Source: an uncultured Acidimicrobiia bacterium (lineage in GTDB: Bacteria; Actinomycetota; Acidimicrobiia; Spongiisociales; ZC4RG35). From it: a stretch of 64,000 nt of DNA. This document shows, in pieces, positions 12,331 to 63,440 of this stretch; position 1 is the first letter of the stretch, and each line of letters opens with the position of its first letter. Under the pieces are notes generated by a model that saw only the letters and a list, made by a program, of their open reading frames with translations, ran no database searches and was not told where the DNA came from. The stretch lies in NCBI GenBank assembly GCA_963790345.1, contig CAWBOD010000011.1:227681-291680 (forward strand), read 5' to 3'. Made by a program: the position numbers and the translations under genes.

Positions 12331-12332
12331 TC

Positions 12333-12430
12333 GCTTATCCAAGCGGGGGACCCGGTGCCCATCCGCTCTATCCAAGCGGGGGACCGGTGCCCATCCGCTC
12401 TATCCAAGCGGGGGACCCGGTGACCATCCG
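12333..12430. repeat. 3 x 32-33 bp tandem repeat in the fadD/metalloprotease intergenic region
   Basis: GCT(C)TATCCAAGCGGGGGACC(C)GGTG(C/A)CCATCC units start at 12333, 12365 and 12397. Each holds a small CCGCT-N7-AGCGG inverted repeat. Confidence 0.85.
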
Positions 12431-12461
12431 CAGGTTCCGTCGACTCAGCATGGCCGTCGAT

Positions 12462-29062: not shown

Positions 29063-29135
29063 CCACCCGCAGATCTAGGCACCCGCAGCTCTGGGTACTT
29101 CCCTCTAGGCACTTCCCTCTAGGCACTTCCCTGGG
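29063..29135. repeat. five degenerate 14-17 bp tandem units spanning the manC stop codon
   Basis: CACCCGCAGATCTAGG / CACCCGCAGCTCTGGG / TACTTCCCTCTAGG / CACTTCCCTCTAGG / CACTTCCCTGGGTCC. The manC stop (CTA 29119..29121) lies inside one unit. Confidence 0.75.
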
Positions 29136-30235
29136 TCCGGTCGCCGAGCCTCTCGACCAGGGTCTTGACATCTTGGGCCCGGTCCCGGGGAACAATCAAG
29201 ACTGCGTCGCGGGTGGCCACCACCACCAACCCTTCGACACCGATCGCCGCCACCAGCGGCCCTTCCGACCTCAGATAGTTGTCCGCCGCGTCGAGAGAGA
29301 TGACGTCGCCCACATTGACATTCCCCTGCTGGTCGTGCTCCCCCAATTCCCAAAGGCTCTCCCACGAGCCGACGTCGTTCCAAGAGGCGTCGAGCTCAAC
29401 CACAGCCGCACGGTCGGTTGGCTCCATCACTGCGACGTCGATCGAACTCGCAGGCGCGGATCCGAATTCGGGTCCCAGCTCGATTCGATCCGCCACCGAG
29501 ACGGACGATCGGAGTGACTCCTCAACGCGCGCCAACACCTCGGGGGCATAGCGGCTCAGCTCCTCGATGAGTACGCCCACGGGGAAGACGAACATCCCGC
29601 TGTTCCAGAGGGCCCCGCTCGCGATAAGTTCAGCCGCGACCGAAACACTGGGCTTTTCGACGAAACGTTGGACGCGGAGGGCACCGGGCCCCCCGCCAAT
29701 TGAAGCGCGGAGGGCCCCCGCCAATTGAAGTGCGAAGGGCACCGGTGGTCGATGGGCCTTCCAGGTCGGAGGGGGCAGGAACGATGTAGCCAAATCCGGT
29801 CTCGGGACGGGTGGGCACCACCCCGAAGGTCACGAGCCGACCCTGCCGGGCAGCCTCGACCGCGGAATCGAGGGCAAGATGGAACGCAGGTACGTTGGCG
29901 ATGTGGTGGTCCGCCGGCAAGACCAGGAGCACGTCGTCGGGGGATGCGGTCAACGCGGCCGCCGCAACTGCCGGGGCGGTATTGCGACCCACCGGCTCGC
30001 CGATGAGTAGGCGCGGAAGATCGGGTCGAATCTGGGCCGCAACCGCGTCGAGGGAGTTGACGTTCGCCACGATCACCATCCGACCATCGAGATGGTTGAC
30101 CCTCGCCAGGGTCGATTGCAGCATCGTCTCGGGTCCCAGCAGTGACTGAAGCTGCTTCGGGGTCGAAGGACGCGACAGCGGCCAGAGCCGCGTGCCCGCT
30201 CCCCCCGACAGAATGACCGGAATTGTCGACGCCAT
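29119..30235 (-). pseudogene. manC: mannose-1-phosphate guanylyltransferase, interrupted by a 58-nt tandem duplication
   Basis: MASTIPVILSGGAGTRLWPLSR and PADH are in the 5' ORF. RFVEKP and LWNSGMFVF are in the 3' ORF. The two ORFs differ by one frame and are separated by the duplicated segment 29673..29745. Confidence 0.85.
29673..29745. repeat. intragenic tandem duplication in manC (33 nt + 25 nt + partial copy)
   Basis: CGCGGAGGGCACCGGGCCCCCCGCCAATTGAAG (29673..29705), CGCGGAGGGCCCCCGCCAATTGAAG (29706..29730), TGCGAAGGGCACCGG (29731..29745). It encodes repeated GALRxSIGGGP. Confidence 0.85.
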
Positions 30236-30256: not shown

Positions 30257-31450
30257 GTGCTGGACGTCTCCCCGTCCCCGTCTCCCTCACCCTCCGGCGG
30301 CGCGAACAGCCTCGTAGTCGTCCCCGTCCTCAACGAAGACCCGGATGTCGTCTTGAGCACGCTGCGGGCGGCGGCCTCCCATCCCGCCGTGGGGTTGGTT
30401 TTGGCCATCACCGGCGACCACGACGAGAGCAACCAGGGAATTCGGGCCATGGTCACCGAGCTGGGCCCAAGGGTGCAAGTGATGCCACAACAACGTCTCG
30501 GGAGCTTGCGGCCCGGCAAGGGTGATGCGATCAACACCGGATGGAAGGTGTTCCTGGAGGACGGTCGATTCCAGAGAATTCATTTCTACGACGCCGACAT
30601 CAAGACGTTCGGCACTGATTGGATCACCAAGGCAGAGGAGGCCCTCGATCTCGGCTTTCAGTCCGTCCGTCATTTCTATCCGAGAGCGGCGACCGACGCG
30701 ATGATCACGTGGATGGTGACCCGACTTGGCTTCGCCCTGCTCTGGCCGCGATCACAACTCCCCACTATCGAGCAACCACTCTCCGGTGAGCTGGCGTTCA
30801 GTCGGGCGGCTTCCGAAATCATCGCCGTCGATCCGCGCGTCAAGTCTCAGAGCGATTGGGGGATCGACACCGCGATTACTTTCGCGACCATTGCGCATGG
30901 TCAATCGATCTACTCGTCGTACATCGCGCGAGGGAAGGACCACGCCCTCTATTCGGTGTTGACGGACATCAAGGTCATGATGGTCGAGTGCCTCGGAGCT
31001 CTCCAGCGGTTACGTTCCGCCGTTGATCAGGACGACGCTCTCGACAAGCCAGTGGAGCGATTCAGCGAACCGGCCGATTCGGTTTCCCAACAGATCGCCC
31101 AGCAGATCGGTTTCGACATAGAAGCGACCCAGAGGCTATTGGCCGTGGGTTGGTCAACCAGACAGGACGCCCTGCTCAGTGCCCATTTTCCGGCGGGCGT
31201 CGCCGCCCGAGCGAGGCAATGGCGCGACTGGCCCGACACCTCGTGGATGGATGAACAGACGTGGTTGGAAACGCTTGCGATCCTGCTCGATGACTTTGTG
31301 CCGACCGACAACGATTGGGTCGACCTCGCCTTCCGTATGTGGGTGGGTCGCGTGCTCCACTACACGCTTCGGATCGCCGTCCGAGGTCACGCGTTCGCAG
31401 ACGCATATCTTCATCAAATGGTCGCGCGGGCGATCACTGCTGCGACTTGA
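30257..31450 (+). CDS. mgs: mannosylglycerate synthase (GT78-type, single-step GDP-mannose + glycerate)
   Basis: Long blocks match my recollection of the Rhodothermus marinus Mgs: LRPGKGDAINTG, RIHFYDADIKTFGTDWITKAEEA, ATDAMITWMVTRLGFALLWP, IEQPLSGEL, SDWGIDT, MMVEC. Divergent from manC. Confidence 0.8.
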   Translation: MLDVSPSPSPSPSGGANSLVVVPVLNEDPDVVLSTLRAAASHPAVGLVLAITGDHDESNQGIRAMVTELGPRVQVMPQQRLGSLRPGKGDAINTGWKVFLEDGRFQRIHFYDADIKTFGTDWITKAEEALDLGFQSVRHFYPRAATDAMITWMVTRLGFALLWPRSQLPTIEQPLSGELAFSRAASEIIAVDPRVKSQSDWGIDTAITFATIAHGQSIYSSYIARGKDHALYSVLTDIKVMMVECLGALQRLRSAVDQDDALDKPVERFSEPADSVSQQIAQQIGFDIEATQRLLAVGWSTRQDALLSAHFPAGVAARARQWRDWPDTSWMDEQTWLETLAILLDDFVPTDNDWVDLAFRMWVGRVLHYTLRIAVRGHAFADAYLHQMVARAITAAT

Positions 31451-31520
31451 TCCGGCCAAACATTTCGTCAATACGCGCCGCCTGTGGATTCTGCTTCATG
31501 CTGTTAAACATTTGAATTTC

Positions 31521-31548
31521 TTGACGCGGTGGAAAGCTTGAATACTCT
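31521..31548 (+). promoter_or_regulatory. putative sigma-A type promoter of the AKKA-repeat gene
   Basis: TTGACG (31521..31526), 16-nt spacer, TACTCT (31543..31548, fits TANNNT). It sits in a locally AT-richer stretch ~65 nt upstream of the start codon. Confidence 0.35.
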
Positions 31549-31612
31549 TGCAACGTCTACGCACTGTCGAGAGATTGGCTTTCGATAAATGGTGCGACGA
31601 CAAGGAGGACAC

Positions 31613-31792
31613 ATGGCAACCAAGAAAGCGGCCAAGAAGGCTCCGGCCAAGAAGGCGGCGCCAAAGCGTGCCGCCAAAAAGGCTCCAGCCAAGAAGGCCG
31701 TAAAGAAGGCCGTCAAGAAGGCTCCAGCCAAGAAGGCCGTCAAGCGAGCCGTCAAGAAGGCCCCCGCCAAGAAGGCTGCGAAAAAGCGCTAG
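31613..31792 (+). CDS. small lysine/alanine-rich histone H1-like (AKKA/PAKKA repeat) basic protein
   Basis: AAGGAGG lies 5 nt before ATG 31613. The 59-aa product is MATKKAAKKAPAKKAAPKRAAKKAPAKKAVKK... The antisense ORF is a mirror artefact. Confidence 0.75.
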   Translation: MATKKAAKKAPAKKAAPKRAAKKAPAKKAVKKAVKKAPAKKAVKRAVKKAPAKKAAKKR

Positions 31793-31811
31793 CGCTTCAA
31801 CGTCAAGCCGT

Positions 31812-31860
31812 AAACAAAGAGAAGCAGGACAGCCATCGGTTGTCCTGCTTCTCTTTGTTT
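31812..31860. terminator. perfect 20-bp stem hairpin downstream of the AKKA gene
   Basis: AAACAAAGAGAAGCAGGACA (31812..31831), 9-nt loop, TGTCCTGCTTCTCTTTGTTT (31841..31860). The right arm ends in a T-rich run. Confidence 0.7.
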
Positions 31861-32155
31861 AGGTCCGAGCTGAGCTGGTTCTCTTGTTTAGGTCCGAGCT
31901 GAGCCGCTTCTCTTGTTTAGGTCCGAGCTGAGCCGCTTCTCGTTCTTTAGGTCCGAGCTGAGCTGCTTCTCTTTTTAGGTCCGAGCTGAGCTGCTTCTCG
32001 TTCTTTAGGTCCGAGCTGAGCCGCTTCTCTTTCTTTAGGTCCGAGCTGAGCTGCTTCTCTTTCTTTAGGTCCGAGCTGAGCCGCTTCTCTTTCTTTAGGT
32101 CCGAGCTGAGCGCTTCTCTTTCTTTAGGTCCGAGCTGAGCGGCTTCTCTGTGTTT
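31861..32155. repeat. 10 x 28-30 bp head-to-tail tandem array
   Basis: AGGTCCGAGCTGAGC(C/T)GCTTCTC(T/G)TT(C)TTT units start at 31861, 31890, 31919, 31949, 31977, 32007, 32037, 32067, 32097 and 32126. There are no spacers. A degenerate 11th unit follows. Confidence 0.95.
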
Positions 32156-32196
32156 AGTTGCGAGCGGGAGCTCTGGTCGGTGTCCGCCGGGTGAAG

Positions 32197-33150
32197 TCAC
32201 GCAGTCACGCGAGCGGCGGAGACCGGTCGCGACACAATCGAGCTCTTGATCCATGCCCTCCGACCCGGATCCTCCGACAGCATTAGTGCCCGCCGGAAAT
32301 ACGCATCGGCCTCACGGGCTCGACGTCGGCGGCTGGCGTAGGCACCGAGGTAGGCGAACGGGATGTCGAGTTGGGCGAACCTGCCCGGCTTCGACAGCTC
32401 CGACACCCACCACCACGCCCTCAGCTCGCCGGCCCTGGGGTCCTCGAGTTCGAAGATCCGGATATCCGCCCTGGCCATGGTGGCCGTGTCTCCAACAGCC
32501 GACGCCAGCGACAAAGCTTCGGCCAAGAGGTCACCGGCGACGTGGGACCGGCCATCGATGATCATGAGCTCAGCCAGCCGCTCGAGCCACGGGGCCCGAT
32601 CCGGGCCTCGCGACTCGCTCAGACGGGCATTGACGATGTCGAGAAACGATGAGATCGGGACCGGCGAGGATGGCGGAAAGTCTTCTCCCGACCTCAGCTC
32701 GGCAAGGTGGACGTCACCGCTGACCTGAGCAAGTCTCTCCTCGACCGGTTCCATCGAGGCAAGAGCTCTATGCGCAATTGCGAGGTGACGCGGGTCGACG
32801 TTGAGGGGCGCCAGGTGCAGGGGTAGGAACAAGCCGAGATTGCTAGTCCCACCGTCCACCTCCACGCGATAACCCAGCAGGAGAGTTTCCGAGTCGGGGG
32901 ATCGAAACCCACCAATCGGATGCGGTCGTCCCGGTATCAAACCCAAGCCCTCGATGAGTTGGGTCGCTGCTTCGCTCGGAGTCTCTCCCGACGCCAGTGT
33001 CACAGCCGGGAGTTCCCAAACGTCGGAAAGGTCAGCGTTCCTCATCCAGACCCGGGAAGCGTGATCGGTGATCACCGGAACCACCTGTACGGAAGTGTTT
33101 AGGGATCGGTCAGATGAACGACGTGAGGCGAGTGGGACGACGTCGGTCAT
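32197..33150 (-). CDS. hypothetical protein (degenerate Nudix-like N-terminus, helical C-terminus)
   Basis: 317-aa ORF with GC-rich third positions. ASGETPSEAATQLIEGLGL resembles a Nudix box but lacks the RE..EE residues. Confidence 0.5.
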   Translation of the reverse strand: MTDVVPLASRRSSDRSLNTSVQVVPVITDHASRVWMRNADLSDVWELPAVTLASGETPSEAATQLIEGLGLIPGRPHPIGGFRSPDSETLLLGYRVEVDGGTSNLGLFLPLHLAPLNVDPRHLAIAHRALASMEPVEERLAQVSGDVHLAELRSGEDFPPSSPVPISSFLDIVNARLSESRGPDRAPWLERLAELMIIDGRSHVAGDLLAEALSLASAVGDTATMARADIRIFELEDPRAGELRAWWWVSELSKPGRFAQLDIPFAYLGAYASRRRRAREADAYFRRALMLSEDPGRRAWIKSSIVSRPVSAARVTA

Positions 33151-34576: not shown

Positions 34577-37345
34577 TCAAGGGTTATAAGCATCAAGGGG
34601 CGGACAGGCGCAAATCAGATTGCGGTCTCCGCCGGGCCCGTCGACTCTCGAAACCGGCGGCCAATACTTGGCGAGCCGTTGCCGCGGATCGGGAAATGCC
34701 GCGGTTTCCCTTGAATACGGGCGATCCCAGTCGCTGGAGACCACATCGGCGGCCGGATGGGGGGCCATCCGCAGAGGGCTCTCGGCCTCGGTCCACTCCC
34801 CCGACTCGACCCGGGCGATCTCGCTCCGTATTGAGATCATCGCATCACAGAATCGATCGAGTTCTTCGAACGACTCGCTCTCCGTCGGCTCGACCATGAG
34901 AGTCCCGGCGACGGGAAAGCTCAACGTGGGGGCGTGGAACCCGTAGTCGGCCAGTCGTTTGGCGACGTCTTCGGCTGTGATTCCGGTCGTCCGGGCGATC
35001 GGGCGGACATCCAGAATGCACTCGTGGGCGACCCGACCGTTGGAGCCCGCGAATAGAACTGGAAAGTGCGGATGCAGCCTGGCTGCCAGGTAGTTCGCAT
35101 TGAGGATCGCAACCTCGGTTGCCTTCCTCAATCCATCCGGACCCATCATTCGTATGTAGGCATACGAGATCGGCAGGATCCCGGCCGATCCCCACGGCGC
35201 CGAAGCCACCGGACCGATTCCGGTGGGTGGCCCGGCTTCGGGCCGCAAGGGATGATTGGGGAGAAATGGAGCCAAATGCTCCTTCACCCCGACCGGGCCT
35301 ACGCCGGGCCCGCCTCCGCCGTGCGGGATCGTGAAGGTCTTGTGCAGGTTCAAATGGGACACGTCCGCTCCGAATTTTCCGGGACGAGCTACTCCCACCA
35401 TGGCGTTGAGATTGGCGCCATCGAGGTATACCTGTCCGCCGCGGTCGTGGACGATCCGGCAAATCTCTTCGACTGCCTCCTCGAAGACGCCGTGGGTCGA
35501 CGGGTAAGTGATCATCACCGCCGACAAACGGTCGCCATGGCGCTCCGCCTTTTCCGTGAGATCCCCGACGTCGACATTGCCGCGGGCGTCACAGGCCACG
35601 ACCACAACCTCCATTCCGGCCATCACCGCCGAGGCGGCGTTGGTGCCGTGAGCGGATGAAGGTATGAGGCAAACCACCCGCTGGTCTTCACCCCTGCTGC
35701 GGTGATAGGCCCGGATTGCCAGAAGACCGGTGAGCTCGCCCTGCGACCCGGCGTTGGGTTGCAGCGAAACGCGGTCGTACCCCGTGATCTCCACGAGATA
35801 CGACTGCAACCGCTCTATCAGCTCGACGTATCCGCCAATCTGGTCGAGAGGTGCGAATGGGTGGACCCTGCCAAAGCCCTCCCATGTAATCGGGATCATC
35901 TCGGCAGTCGCGTTGAGCTTCATGGTGCAGGAGCCGAGGGGAATCATCGTCCGATCGAGAGCGAGGTCGCGATCGGCCAGACGCCGAAGGTAGCGCAACA
36001 TCTCGTGTTCGGACCGGTAGCGATGAAAGACGTCATGCGTCAGGAACTCGTCCTGTCTTGCCAGTGCGGCTGGTATTCCTTCCGAGACTCGACCCCGGTC
36101 CTCCCCCAATCCGAAAGCCATGACCAACGCGTCAACGACTTCCGGTGTGCTGAGCTCGTCGAACGAAATACCTACTCGATCCGCGTCTAGCGGCCGCAGG
36201 TTGATCCCAGCCAGCAATGCCTTCTCCACGATTTCGCTCGCGCGGCCCGGAACTCTCACGGTGAGGGTGTCGAACCAGGTCGCGTTCTCAACCTCGACGC
36301 CTGCCGCGGCTAGCTCGCCGACCAGCCTTCCGGCGAGGTGGTTGATCCGCCGAGCTATGGCCGCAAGACCATCGGGCCCGTGCCAGCAGGCGTAGAGAGC
36401 GGCCATGATCGCCAGGAGAACCTGGGCTGTGCAGACGTTCGAGGTGGCCTTTTCACGTCGAATGTGTTGCTCGCGGGTCTGCAAAGAGAGGCGGAATGCG
36501 ACCCGCCCCCCCGTGTCCTTGGAGACCCCCACCAGACGCCCGGGCAACGCCCTCACCAGCGATTCCCGGGTTGCGATGAAACCAGCATGAGGACCACCGA
36601 AACCCAGCGGAACCCCGAACCGTTGCGACGAACCTACCGCGATGTCCGCACCCATCGAACCGGGCGAGGCGAGCAACGTGAGGGCAAGCAGATCAGTCAC
36701 CACCGCGATCAATGCACCGGCTTGATGAGCCTCGGCGATGATCGCCCTGTGGTCAGAGATCGCTCCACTCGATCCGGGATACGCCAGCAGCGCTCCACAT
36801 GACTCGGCGAAGTCGAAATCGGCCGGCCTGGCTACCTTCACCTCAATCCCCAGGGGTTCTCCCCGGGTCGAGACCACAGCGATCGTTTGGGGGTGGCAGT
36901 CTTCGTCGACCCAAAAAATCAATCTGTCTGCGGGTCCCAGGCGTCGGCACATGGTCATCGCTTCGGCAGCTGCGGTGCCTTCGTCCAGCAAGGAAGCGTT
37001 GGCGATCTCGAGGCCGGTGAGATCGGAGACCATCGTCTGAAACGTCAGGAGCAACTCGAGGCGGCCCTGGGAGATCTCGGCCTGATAGGGCGTGTAGGCG
37101 GTGTACCACGCCGGATTTTCGAGAACGTTTCGCAATATCACGGGAGGCGTGATCGTGTCGTAGTAGCCGAGCCCGATCATGGAGATGAGAACCTCGTTGC
37201 GCTTGGCCAGCCCCGACAACTCGGCCAGTGCGGCGCGCTCGGAGAGTGCGGGCTCGAGGGCAAGGGCGCGGTCGGTTCTGATTCCCTTGGGCACGGTCTG
37301 GGCGATCAACTCCTCGAGGGAATCGGCGCCGATCTCGGCGAGCAT
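34577..37345 (-). CDS. gcvP: glycine dehydrogenase (decarboxylating), P-protein
   Basis: 922-aa intact ORF with an internal PLP-lysine region ([18 protein letters not shown]). The conserved [15 protein letters not shown] lies in frame just upstream, with no start codon. An SD-preceded ATG at 37407 (MEALADF) is one frame off, so a 1-nt indel near 37385 probably truncates the annotated 5' end. Confidence 0.9.
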
Positions 37346-63049: not shown

Positions 63050-63409
63050 CTAGCCGATCAACGTCGCCGCCACCGCGGCCACTGCAAACGCCAGGAGCCA
63101 GGAGGCCAAGGATCCCACCAATACGTATTCGGGCGAGATCTCGCTGTTGACGCCCGTTATCTCCGGAAATCGCAAAAGGCTCTTGGCGGCGGCCACCAGC
63201 CCGGCCGCACCGGGCTCCCCCATCAACACGAGGATGTAGATCAACAGGCGCTCCATGCCGCCGATCCACCTACCTGCCCCGGCTGCGGCCGGGAGCGCCA
63301 CCCCCCGGGCCTTTCTGAGGATCCAGCGAACCGCGAAGTTGGCCGGGGTGAGCAGCAGGGCGGCACCGATCACGACGACGAGCAGATCGAAGAGATCGTT
63401 GATGTTCAT
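63050..63409 (-). CDS. small membrane protein (DUF3307-like guess) downstream of satD
   Basis: 119 aa with 3-4 hydrophobic helices. The start codon sits in the last copy of a 14-bp tandem repeat. Confidence 0.55.
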   Translation of the reverse strand: MNINDLFDLLVVVIGAALLLTPANFAVRWILRKARGVALPAAAGAGRWIGGMERLLIYILVLMGEPGAAGLVAAAKSLLRFPEITGVNSEISPEYVLVGSLASWLLAFAVAAVAATLIG

Positions 63410-63440
63410 GCGTTGATGTTCATGCGTTGATGTTCATGCG
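63399..63440. repeat. 3 x 14 bp tandem repeat covering a start codon
   Basis: GTTGATGTTCATGC occurs at 63399, 63413 and 63427 (minus strand GCATGAACATCAAC x3), followed by a degenerate GATGCTCATGC. Confidence 0.9.

Follow-up and report, generated by a model that had tools for sequence, protein, structure and literature searches.

The origin of bacterial VNTRs is attributed to slipped-strand mispairing. Other regular arrays of direct repeats, such as iterons and the sopC array, lie beside par or rep genes on a plasmid, carry a conserved binding motif in each repeat (an inverted repeat in the case of sopC), and are conserved within a plasmid family. The REP and BIME clusters of Enterobacteria and Pseudomonas (PMC2817692, PMC3116915) are built of palindromic units in alternating orientation that occur in hundreds of dispersed copies and are mobilised by a RAYT transposase. 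Slippage itself has been followed in vitro: given a single-stranded template with a hairpin next to short direct repeats, DNA polymerases are reported to slip (PMC4134008; PMC13465473).

The array considered here belongs to genome G000, a 2.77-Mb MAG in 16 contigs that is 61% complete, and the window (the whole stretch of 64,000 nucleotides that was analysed) corresponds to C11:227681-291680. At a probability of about 0.75, the array is best read as a locus-specific, hypervariable, and near-neutral VNTR that was seeded by slippage on a bidirectional intrinsic terminator. The features of the locus, in window coordinates, are these:

31613-31792, plus strand: the AKKA gene, recognised from the ORF and the sequence; 59 aa, Lys/Ala/Pro-rich, histone-H1-like
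31812-31860, both strands alike: palindromic hairpin, recognised from the sequence and from folds on both strands
31845-32171, no strand: minisatellite in the TRF phase; 10.9 units of [Y]GCTTCTCTTTCTTT-AGGTCCGAGCTGAGC, each 28-30 bp
31859-32254, minus strand: 131-aa ORF that spans the array, judged a spurious by-product of two stop-free unit frames
32172-32196, no strand: unique spacer (TCTGGTCGG...), 25 bases from the array end to the stop of the 317-aa gene
32197-33150, minus strand: the 317-aa gene, recognised from the ORF; convergent with AKKA

Like MLVA-type VNTR loci (e.g. mycobacterial), this locus has a head-to-tail unit of 20-30 bp at one intergenic site, it varies from one close strain to another in copy number and in unit variants, and its edges are diverged and its centre homogenised. 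It departs from those loci in that the unit can visibly be traced to the adjacent putative terminator, namely to its 3' arm and T-tract, the first unit being the arm, and in that the unit length has been remodelled (30, 24-25, and 20 bp) within ~5-7% flank divergence. With REP/BIME clusters it shares a position in the gap between convergent genes, at or adjoining transcript ends; here, however, no element after the first is a hairpin, the units all run in one direction, and a single locus holds them. About ten direct repeats, regularly spaced and spacer-less, also recall sopC of the F plasmid and iterons, but this array has no par or rep neighbours, no plasmid setting, no motif conserved in every repeat, and no conservation within a family. 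A stable hairpin that directly adjoins direct repeats is likewise the arrangement of the in vitro slippage substrates (PMC4134008; PMC13465473), and it suggests a way in which units could often be gained and lost. Those engineered templates score deletion of the hairpin between the repeats, whereas here the hairpin persists, presumably under selection for termination, and variation is limited to the repeats 3' of it. A search of the literature returned general papers on VNTRs and on slippage and found none on an array seeded from a terminator arm.

As assembled, the array comprises ten head-to-tail units of ~30 bp from 31861 to 32155, the number counted in the earlier note, plus one degenerate copy, and it does lie between convergent genes, AKKA on the plus strand and the 317-aa gene on the minus strand. 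The core AGGTCCGAGCTGAGC occurs exactly ten times (at 31861, 31890, 31919, 31949, 31977, 32007, 32037, 32067, 32097, and 32126), with steps of 29, 29, 30, 28, 30, 30, 30, 30, and 29 nt between successive cores; 0.27 occurrences are expected by chance, and ten were reached in 0 of 100 shuffles. TRF describes the repeat as 10.9 copies of period 30 with 92% matches over 31845-32165, and because it starts at 31845, the phase of the array begins inside the 3' arm of the hairpin and the first unit is the arm itself. The eleventh copy, at ~32141-32171, is degenerate (TTTAGTTGCGAGCGGGAGC) and puts the end of the array at ~32171. Ordered variants among the units of G000 affect the first base (C or T), CTCG versus CTCT, and GTTT versus CTTT, the hairpin-like GTTT being confined to the edge units 1-3 and 11 and CTTT to units 4-10. 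The array is also, as had been estimated by hand, less GC-rich than its surroundings (G+C 0.525 vs 0.60-0.68 in the flanks). Within the spacer that follows, the anchor CTCTGGTCG is present in G000 and in five of the close strains listed below (L033, L037, L038, L039, and L040); it is conserved across the strains with an array and shows where the array ends distally. In its direct head-to-tail repeats, its unit length within ~10-100 bp, and its confinement to a single locus, the array has the attributes by which a VNTR or minisatellite is recognised.

The hairpin starts 20 nt past the AKKA stop and is made up of a 5' arm at 31812-31831 (AAACAAAGAGAAGCAGGACA), a 9-nt loop at 31832-31840, and a 3' arm at 31841-31860 (TGTCCTGCTTCTCTTTGTTT). 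Direct reading gives 20 pairs out of 20 and so upholds the perfect 20-bp stem first reported for this position; in RNAfold the stem continues into the loop. Its core is GCAGGACA/TGTCCTGC and its tail TTCTCTTTGTTT, an A-rich 5' flank lies within the 5' arm and a U-rich tail within the 3' arm, and the duplex of the two arms has an energy of -32.4 kcal/mol. A stable, G+C-containing stem followed by a U-rich tract shortly after a stop codon is what is looked for in an intrinsic terminator, and all of these are present. The promoter/terminator consensus scan did not list the hairpin itself, presumably because the T-rich tail sits inside the stem.

There is reason to think that this structure has been kept by selection. 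All 11 orthologous loci have a hairpin at the same position after the AKKA stop, with energies of -27 to -45 kcal/mol, an A-rich lead-in, a T-rich tail, and a stem that differs in sequence and is compensated (e.g. GGGTCCACC/GGTGGACCC, GGGCCGGCCAACC/GGTTGGCCGGCCC, and GATCGGTCG/CGACCGATC), and hairpins that hold their position with different stems point to a Rho-independent terminator maintained by compensating changes. The A-tract and the U-tract lie inside the stem, so that the hairpin is the same on both strands, and a bidirectional reading is therefore suggested. Between the 317-aa stop and the hairpin, the consensus scan found no terminator-like site. From the conserved and compensated hairpin, its strand symmetry, and the lack of any other terminator-like site before it, we infer a palindromic Rho-independent terminator that is common to the AKKA and 317-aa genes and would end both. 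The array is situated downstream of this putative terminator for AKKA, and between the stop codon and the predicted terminator for the 317-aa gene. In one relative, G003, a second G+C-rich hairpin, GGTCCCCCCGC-aagc-GGGGGGAC (L013 1290-1330), adjoins the stop of the 317-aa homologue, and in that genome the convergent genes may have a terminator each.

The relation between hairpin and array can be read from the units themselves. The tail of the hairpin 3' arm, TGCTTCTCTTTGT, is present in every unit type of every strain, and removal of TTAGGTCCGA from the 30-bp unit yields exactly the 20-bp unit (GCTGAGC-TGCTTCTCTTTGT); the 20-bp array of L033 still ends in one copy of the 30-type. In L040 the arm has TTTT in place of TTCT, a C-to-T change, the first units after the arm carry the same variant, and the 5' arm has a compensating AAAA. 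Because the variant is common to the arm and the first units and is compensated in the 5' arm, the units adjoining the hairpin were copied from the arm recently, and the arm is still paired. The suggestion that the hairpin's right arm gave rise to the array is thus borne out by the TRF phase inside the arm, by TGCTTCTCTTTGT in all units, and by the L040 variant. The centre of the array appears to have been homogenised by repeated gain and loss, with edges that remain arm-like, as in arrays that evolve by slippage.

Close strains were found via the exact AKKA protein, an identical copy of which is on three independent metagenome contigs, and via members of the 90% cluster of the 317-aa protein. 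Exact-protein look-ups for the 317-aa protein, for the MGS protein, and for a 292-aa protein of L033 gave no match, and cluster members were used instead. Seven independent metagenome contigs, with flanks 86-99.7% identical to the window (92-99.7% in six of them), have repeats at the same site in structures unlike that of G000, and the variation in copy number among strains for which a check had been proposed is therefore real. The structures are as follows:

G000 (window): ten 30-bp units and one degenerate copy
L033 (JGI 3300064746): four 20-bp units (TGCTTCTCTTTGT-GCTGAGC), then one 30-type copy
L036 (ERZ25039588): one 20-bp unit, then a 30-type copy
L037 / L038 (ERZ27311206 / ERR6862852): two units of ~25 bp each
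L040 (ERZ27257127): four units of 19-20 bp (GTTGAGC variant), then two 24-bp units
L034 (ERZ27257127, the sample of L040): a different array of at least four units that runs off the contig end
L035 and L039 (ERZ27257057): left and right ends of an array of at least seven 20-bp units

At least six array structures are represented in total, which is the between-strain variation that the term VNTR implies. The two arrays from sample ERZ27257127, L034 and L040, sit on somewhat different flanks and may therefore come from co-occurring strains. In two samples the MEGAHIT k141 contigs break inside the array, and the L035/L039 array is not closed; such breaks are expected for a real, heterogeneous repeat longer than k. 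The L036 contig (contig_109347) has a broken AKKA frame, one base missing in the hairpin 5' arm, and a 317-aa homologue called as 356 aa, indels that suggest an error-prone long-read assembly, so that its array of one 20-bp unit is to be read with caution. All seven close-strain contigs keep at least one extra copy, and for this reason at least two copies of the motif may be required.

More distant relatives have no array. In G001, G002, G003, G005, and L041/L042, whose flanks are 73-77% identical, the gene pair is kept with a spacer of 117-215 bp that contains a single hairpin with a different stem. The pair itself is widely retained. The AKKA protein is composed almost entirely of K, A, P, and V, its gene has a Shine-Dalgarno sequence, AAGGAGG, at 31602-31608, and neither it nor the 317-aa protein has a match in Pfam; full-length homologues of the 317-aa protein, at 63-80% identity, are found in related Acidimicrobiia. 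The convergent AKKA and 317-aa genes stay together in four congeneric genomes and, beyond the genus, in at least two further genera of the family, and at G011:C27:57802-58975 and G012:C25:72175-73330 an AKKA-type gene and a member of the 317-aa family (33-35% identity) are again convergent, across a spacer of ~100-120 bp. This pairing across genera hints at a functional link or simply at a stable common terminator.

The wider neighbourhood consists of mannosylglycerate synthase, manC, the 317-aa gene, a 432-aa gene, and the ORF at 34577-37345, and the context of the array is one of chromosomal housekeeping genes. A full-length mannosylglycerate synthase (MGS_GT + MGS_C, E = 7.6e-84) is encoded at 30257-31450, directly upstream of AKKA and divergent from manC, and together with manC it makes up a compatible-solute locus. 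The manC gene (NTP_transferase + ManC_GMP beta-helix) is divided between two minus-strand ORFs, 29630-30235 and 29119-29793, with a 25-bp tandem duplication (two copies, 29690-29740) at the split point; it is intact (~351 aa) in the close strain L037 and in the relative L041. Either slippage has turned manC into a pseudogene or the split is an error of the assembly.

Searches for the unit outside this locus came back essentially empty. Across the whole 2.77-Mb genome the exact core is found at the array locus only, which settles one of the checks named in the earlier note, and a regex scan for the core and two arm-derived motifs confined them to the same place. Two one-mismatch matches to the core lie elsewhere in the genome, both single and at the level of the reversed-pattern control. 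A dispersed repeat family within the organism's own genome was accordingly rejected, all ten exact cores being at this locus and the remainder control-level singles. Rfam (E-value mode, 31000-33000) gave no match above threshold, with sub-threshold miRNA-type matches to the hairpin; the contigs of GTDB species representatives held no exact match to the unit, and the plasmid and phage collections (blastn in distant mode) no unit match. JGI metagenome contigs contained two single unit matches, unrelated, at chance level, and not in arrays. From these searches of the genome, Rfam, public contigs, plasmids, and phages, the unit does not belong to a dispersed or known family. The statement that no described element has this unit therefore stands, with no match in Rfam, plasmids, phages, or GTDB contigs and two chance singles in metagenomes, and the unit has turned out to occupy one locus rather than to be part of a known dispersed family with many genomic copies.

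Tandem repeats of other kinds are common in this genome, for which TRF returned 291 rows at a score of at least 60. A dispersed, G+C-rich family of 31-34 bp, GCGG[A/T]AGGGCACCGGGCCCCCCGC followed by ~8 variable nt, has hairpin-capable GGGCCC cores and a sequence unrelated to the 30-bp unit; many intergenic sites have a tandem array of it, 3-5.4 copies long, among them window positions 12332-12431 (= C11:240012-240111) and at least 17 others (e.g. C1:168843-169025, C4:9065-9249, and C8:86700-86869), and it looks REP/BIME-like. Two short arrays at gene ends within the window, 29089-29132 and 63397-63440, each consist of 3.1 perfect or near-perfect copies of 14 bp. Seeding by a hairpin was not evident in the ten other arrays of the genome that were inspected. 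The genome-wide wealth of short tandem arrays fits a slippage-prone lineage.

Several other accounts of the array have to be weighed against a terminator-seeded VNTR. Folding of the 411-nt region gave no excess of structure over shuffles (z = -0.81 on the plus strand and -0.29 on the minus strand), and the promoter/terminator consensus scan found no promoter-like sites and nothing within the array. The idea of a stack of terminators or sRNA modules accordingly falls, as the units have neither a 5' arm nor a fold of their own, promoter-like sites are missing, and the Rfam matches are sub-threshold only. Membership in a REP/BIME family was rejected on the same folds (units without their own hairpin, z -0.81 and -0.29) and on the restriction to one locus, and a CRISPR array on the finding that the units abut, with no spacers. 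A role in RNA is unlikely, although several observations would suit it: the array could serve the 317-aa gene as a selected, copy-variable 3' UTR, or supply decoy arms for the shared terminator, and so tune mRNA stability, termination, or transcriptional interference between the convergent genes. It lies between the 317-aa stop (32197) and the sole strong hairpin downstream, with no other terminator-like site; the part complementary to the 5' arm is kept in every unit, at least one extra copy in all close strains, and the copy number is variable, as at phase-variable loci. Nevertheless, duplexes of the 5' arm with any of the units have energies of -14 to -19 kcal/mol as against -32.4 for the true arm, about half the energy, on which count decoy-arm pairing was rejected, and the true arm is both nearer and transcribed first. 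Structure does not rise above shuffled controls, the sequence beyond the arm-derived part is not conserved, and the relatives do well without an array. The broader proposal of a selected contingency locus, in which the number of arm copies would tune the shared terminator or the 317-aa 3' UTR, or would load the AKKA protein, as a heritable and reversible expression switch, is a long shot.

That the array binds a protein, as an iteron- or centromere-like element or as a nucleation site for the histone-like AKKA protein, is very improbable. The regular spacing of 30 or 20 bp does approximate three or two helical turns, and the array is the most A+T-rich stretch of its neighbourhood and adjoins the gene for a basic protein of DNA-binding type; yet no replication or partition gene is nearby, the sole ParB_N gene in the genome is on contig C7 and not on the array contig, and the setting is one of chromosomal housekeeping genes with no plasmid or phage match. 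The unit contains no inverted repeat, its spacing and half of its sequence differ among strains that are 92-99% identical, and no genus relative with the same AKKA gene has the array. The likeness to sopC drawn in the earlier note fails on this housekeeping context, on ParB being elsewhere, on the missing inverted repeat, on a spacing that goes from 30 to 24-25 to 20 bp, and on the loss of half of the unit. An iteron or centromere array was rejected for want of rep or parAB neighbours and of a plasmid match, and a conserved binding motif at fixed spacing because the spacing is 30, 24-25, or 20 bp by strain and the 20-bp units have lost the AGGTCCGA half. It is quite unlikely that the assembly is at fault, with the ten units of G000 an over- or under-expanded count and the 28- and 29-nt units long-read indel errors. 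The MAG is only 61% complete and the differences in unit length are single bases, mostly in T runs, but arrays stand at the same site in independent assemblies from at least five other samples, the units of G000 are non-identical, ordered variants that artefactual expansion would not create, and the objection concerns the count of units rather than the existence of the array; the count of ten in G000 and its 28- and 29-nt units may nevertheless include some error from assembly or long-read indels. There remains the minus-strand ORF of 131 aa. Contrary to the expectation that the unit lengths would break any long frame, the minus-strand unit is stop-free in two of three frames and this ORF, with an ATG, is open across the whole array; even so, a real repeat-protein gene (LSSDLKKEKR / EAAQLGPKER) is hardly credible here, as the ORF shares sequence with the 3' end of the conserved 317-aa gene, alternates between two of the unit's frames, has unrelated peptides or stops in the same region of L033, L036, L037, and L040, and would have no room in the relatives.

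A VNTR seeded on the terminator arm would have begun, within the species-level clade, with a tandem duplication of the tail of the 3' arm (TGCTTCTCTTTGTTT) together with the next ~15 nt (AGGTCCGAGCTGAGC). Expansion, contraction, and remodelling would have followed via replication slippage or unequal recombination, one of the remodelling steps being a 10-bp internal deletion that would convert the 30-bp unit into the 20-bp unit. The adjoining 20-bp perfect palindrome probably stimulates slippage, since polymerases slip on templates that have a hairpin flanked by direct repeats. The hairpin has been retained presumably because it is a terminator, and variation on its 3' side may be tolerated because that side falls between the ends of two genes. 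Most likely the array is without a dedicated function, and its lack of conservation suggests that it is probably near-neutral. One plausible effect is that the 3' UTR of the 317-aa gene would be longer by ~300 nt, and purine-rich, as the array would be transcribed in that 3' UTR if the hairpin is the terminator of the gene.

The locus is a bacterial VNTR or minisatellite of unusually legible origin and fast unit remodelling. It shows the birth and the remodelling of a bacterial minisatellite whose seed, the terminator 3' arm and 15 nt, can still be made out; the genus relatives preserve the ancestral state without an array, and at least six descendant states, with units of 30, 24-25, and 20 bp, co-exist in close environmental strains. 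The locus would be a sensitive strain marker in metagenomes for this uncultured Acidimicrobiia lineage, and it is a spot where short-read assemblies break. Biological weight would come to it only if copy number does tune termination or the 317-aa 3' UTR; if that contingency reading were true, the array would be a terminator-side counterpart of promoter-spacing phase variation.
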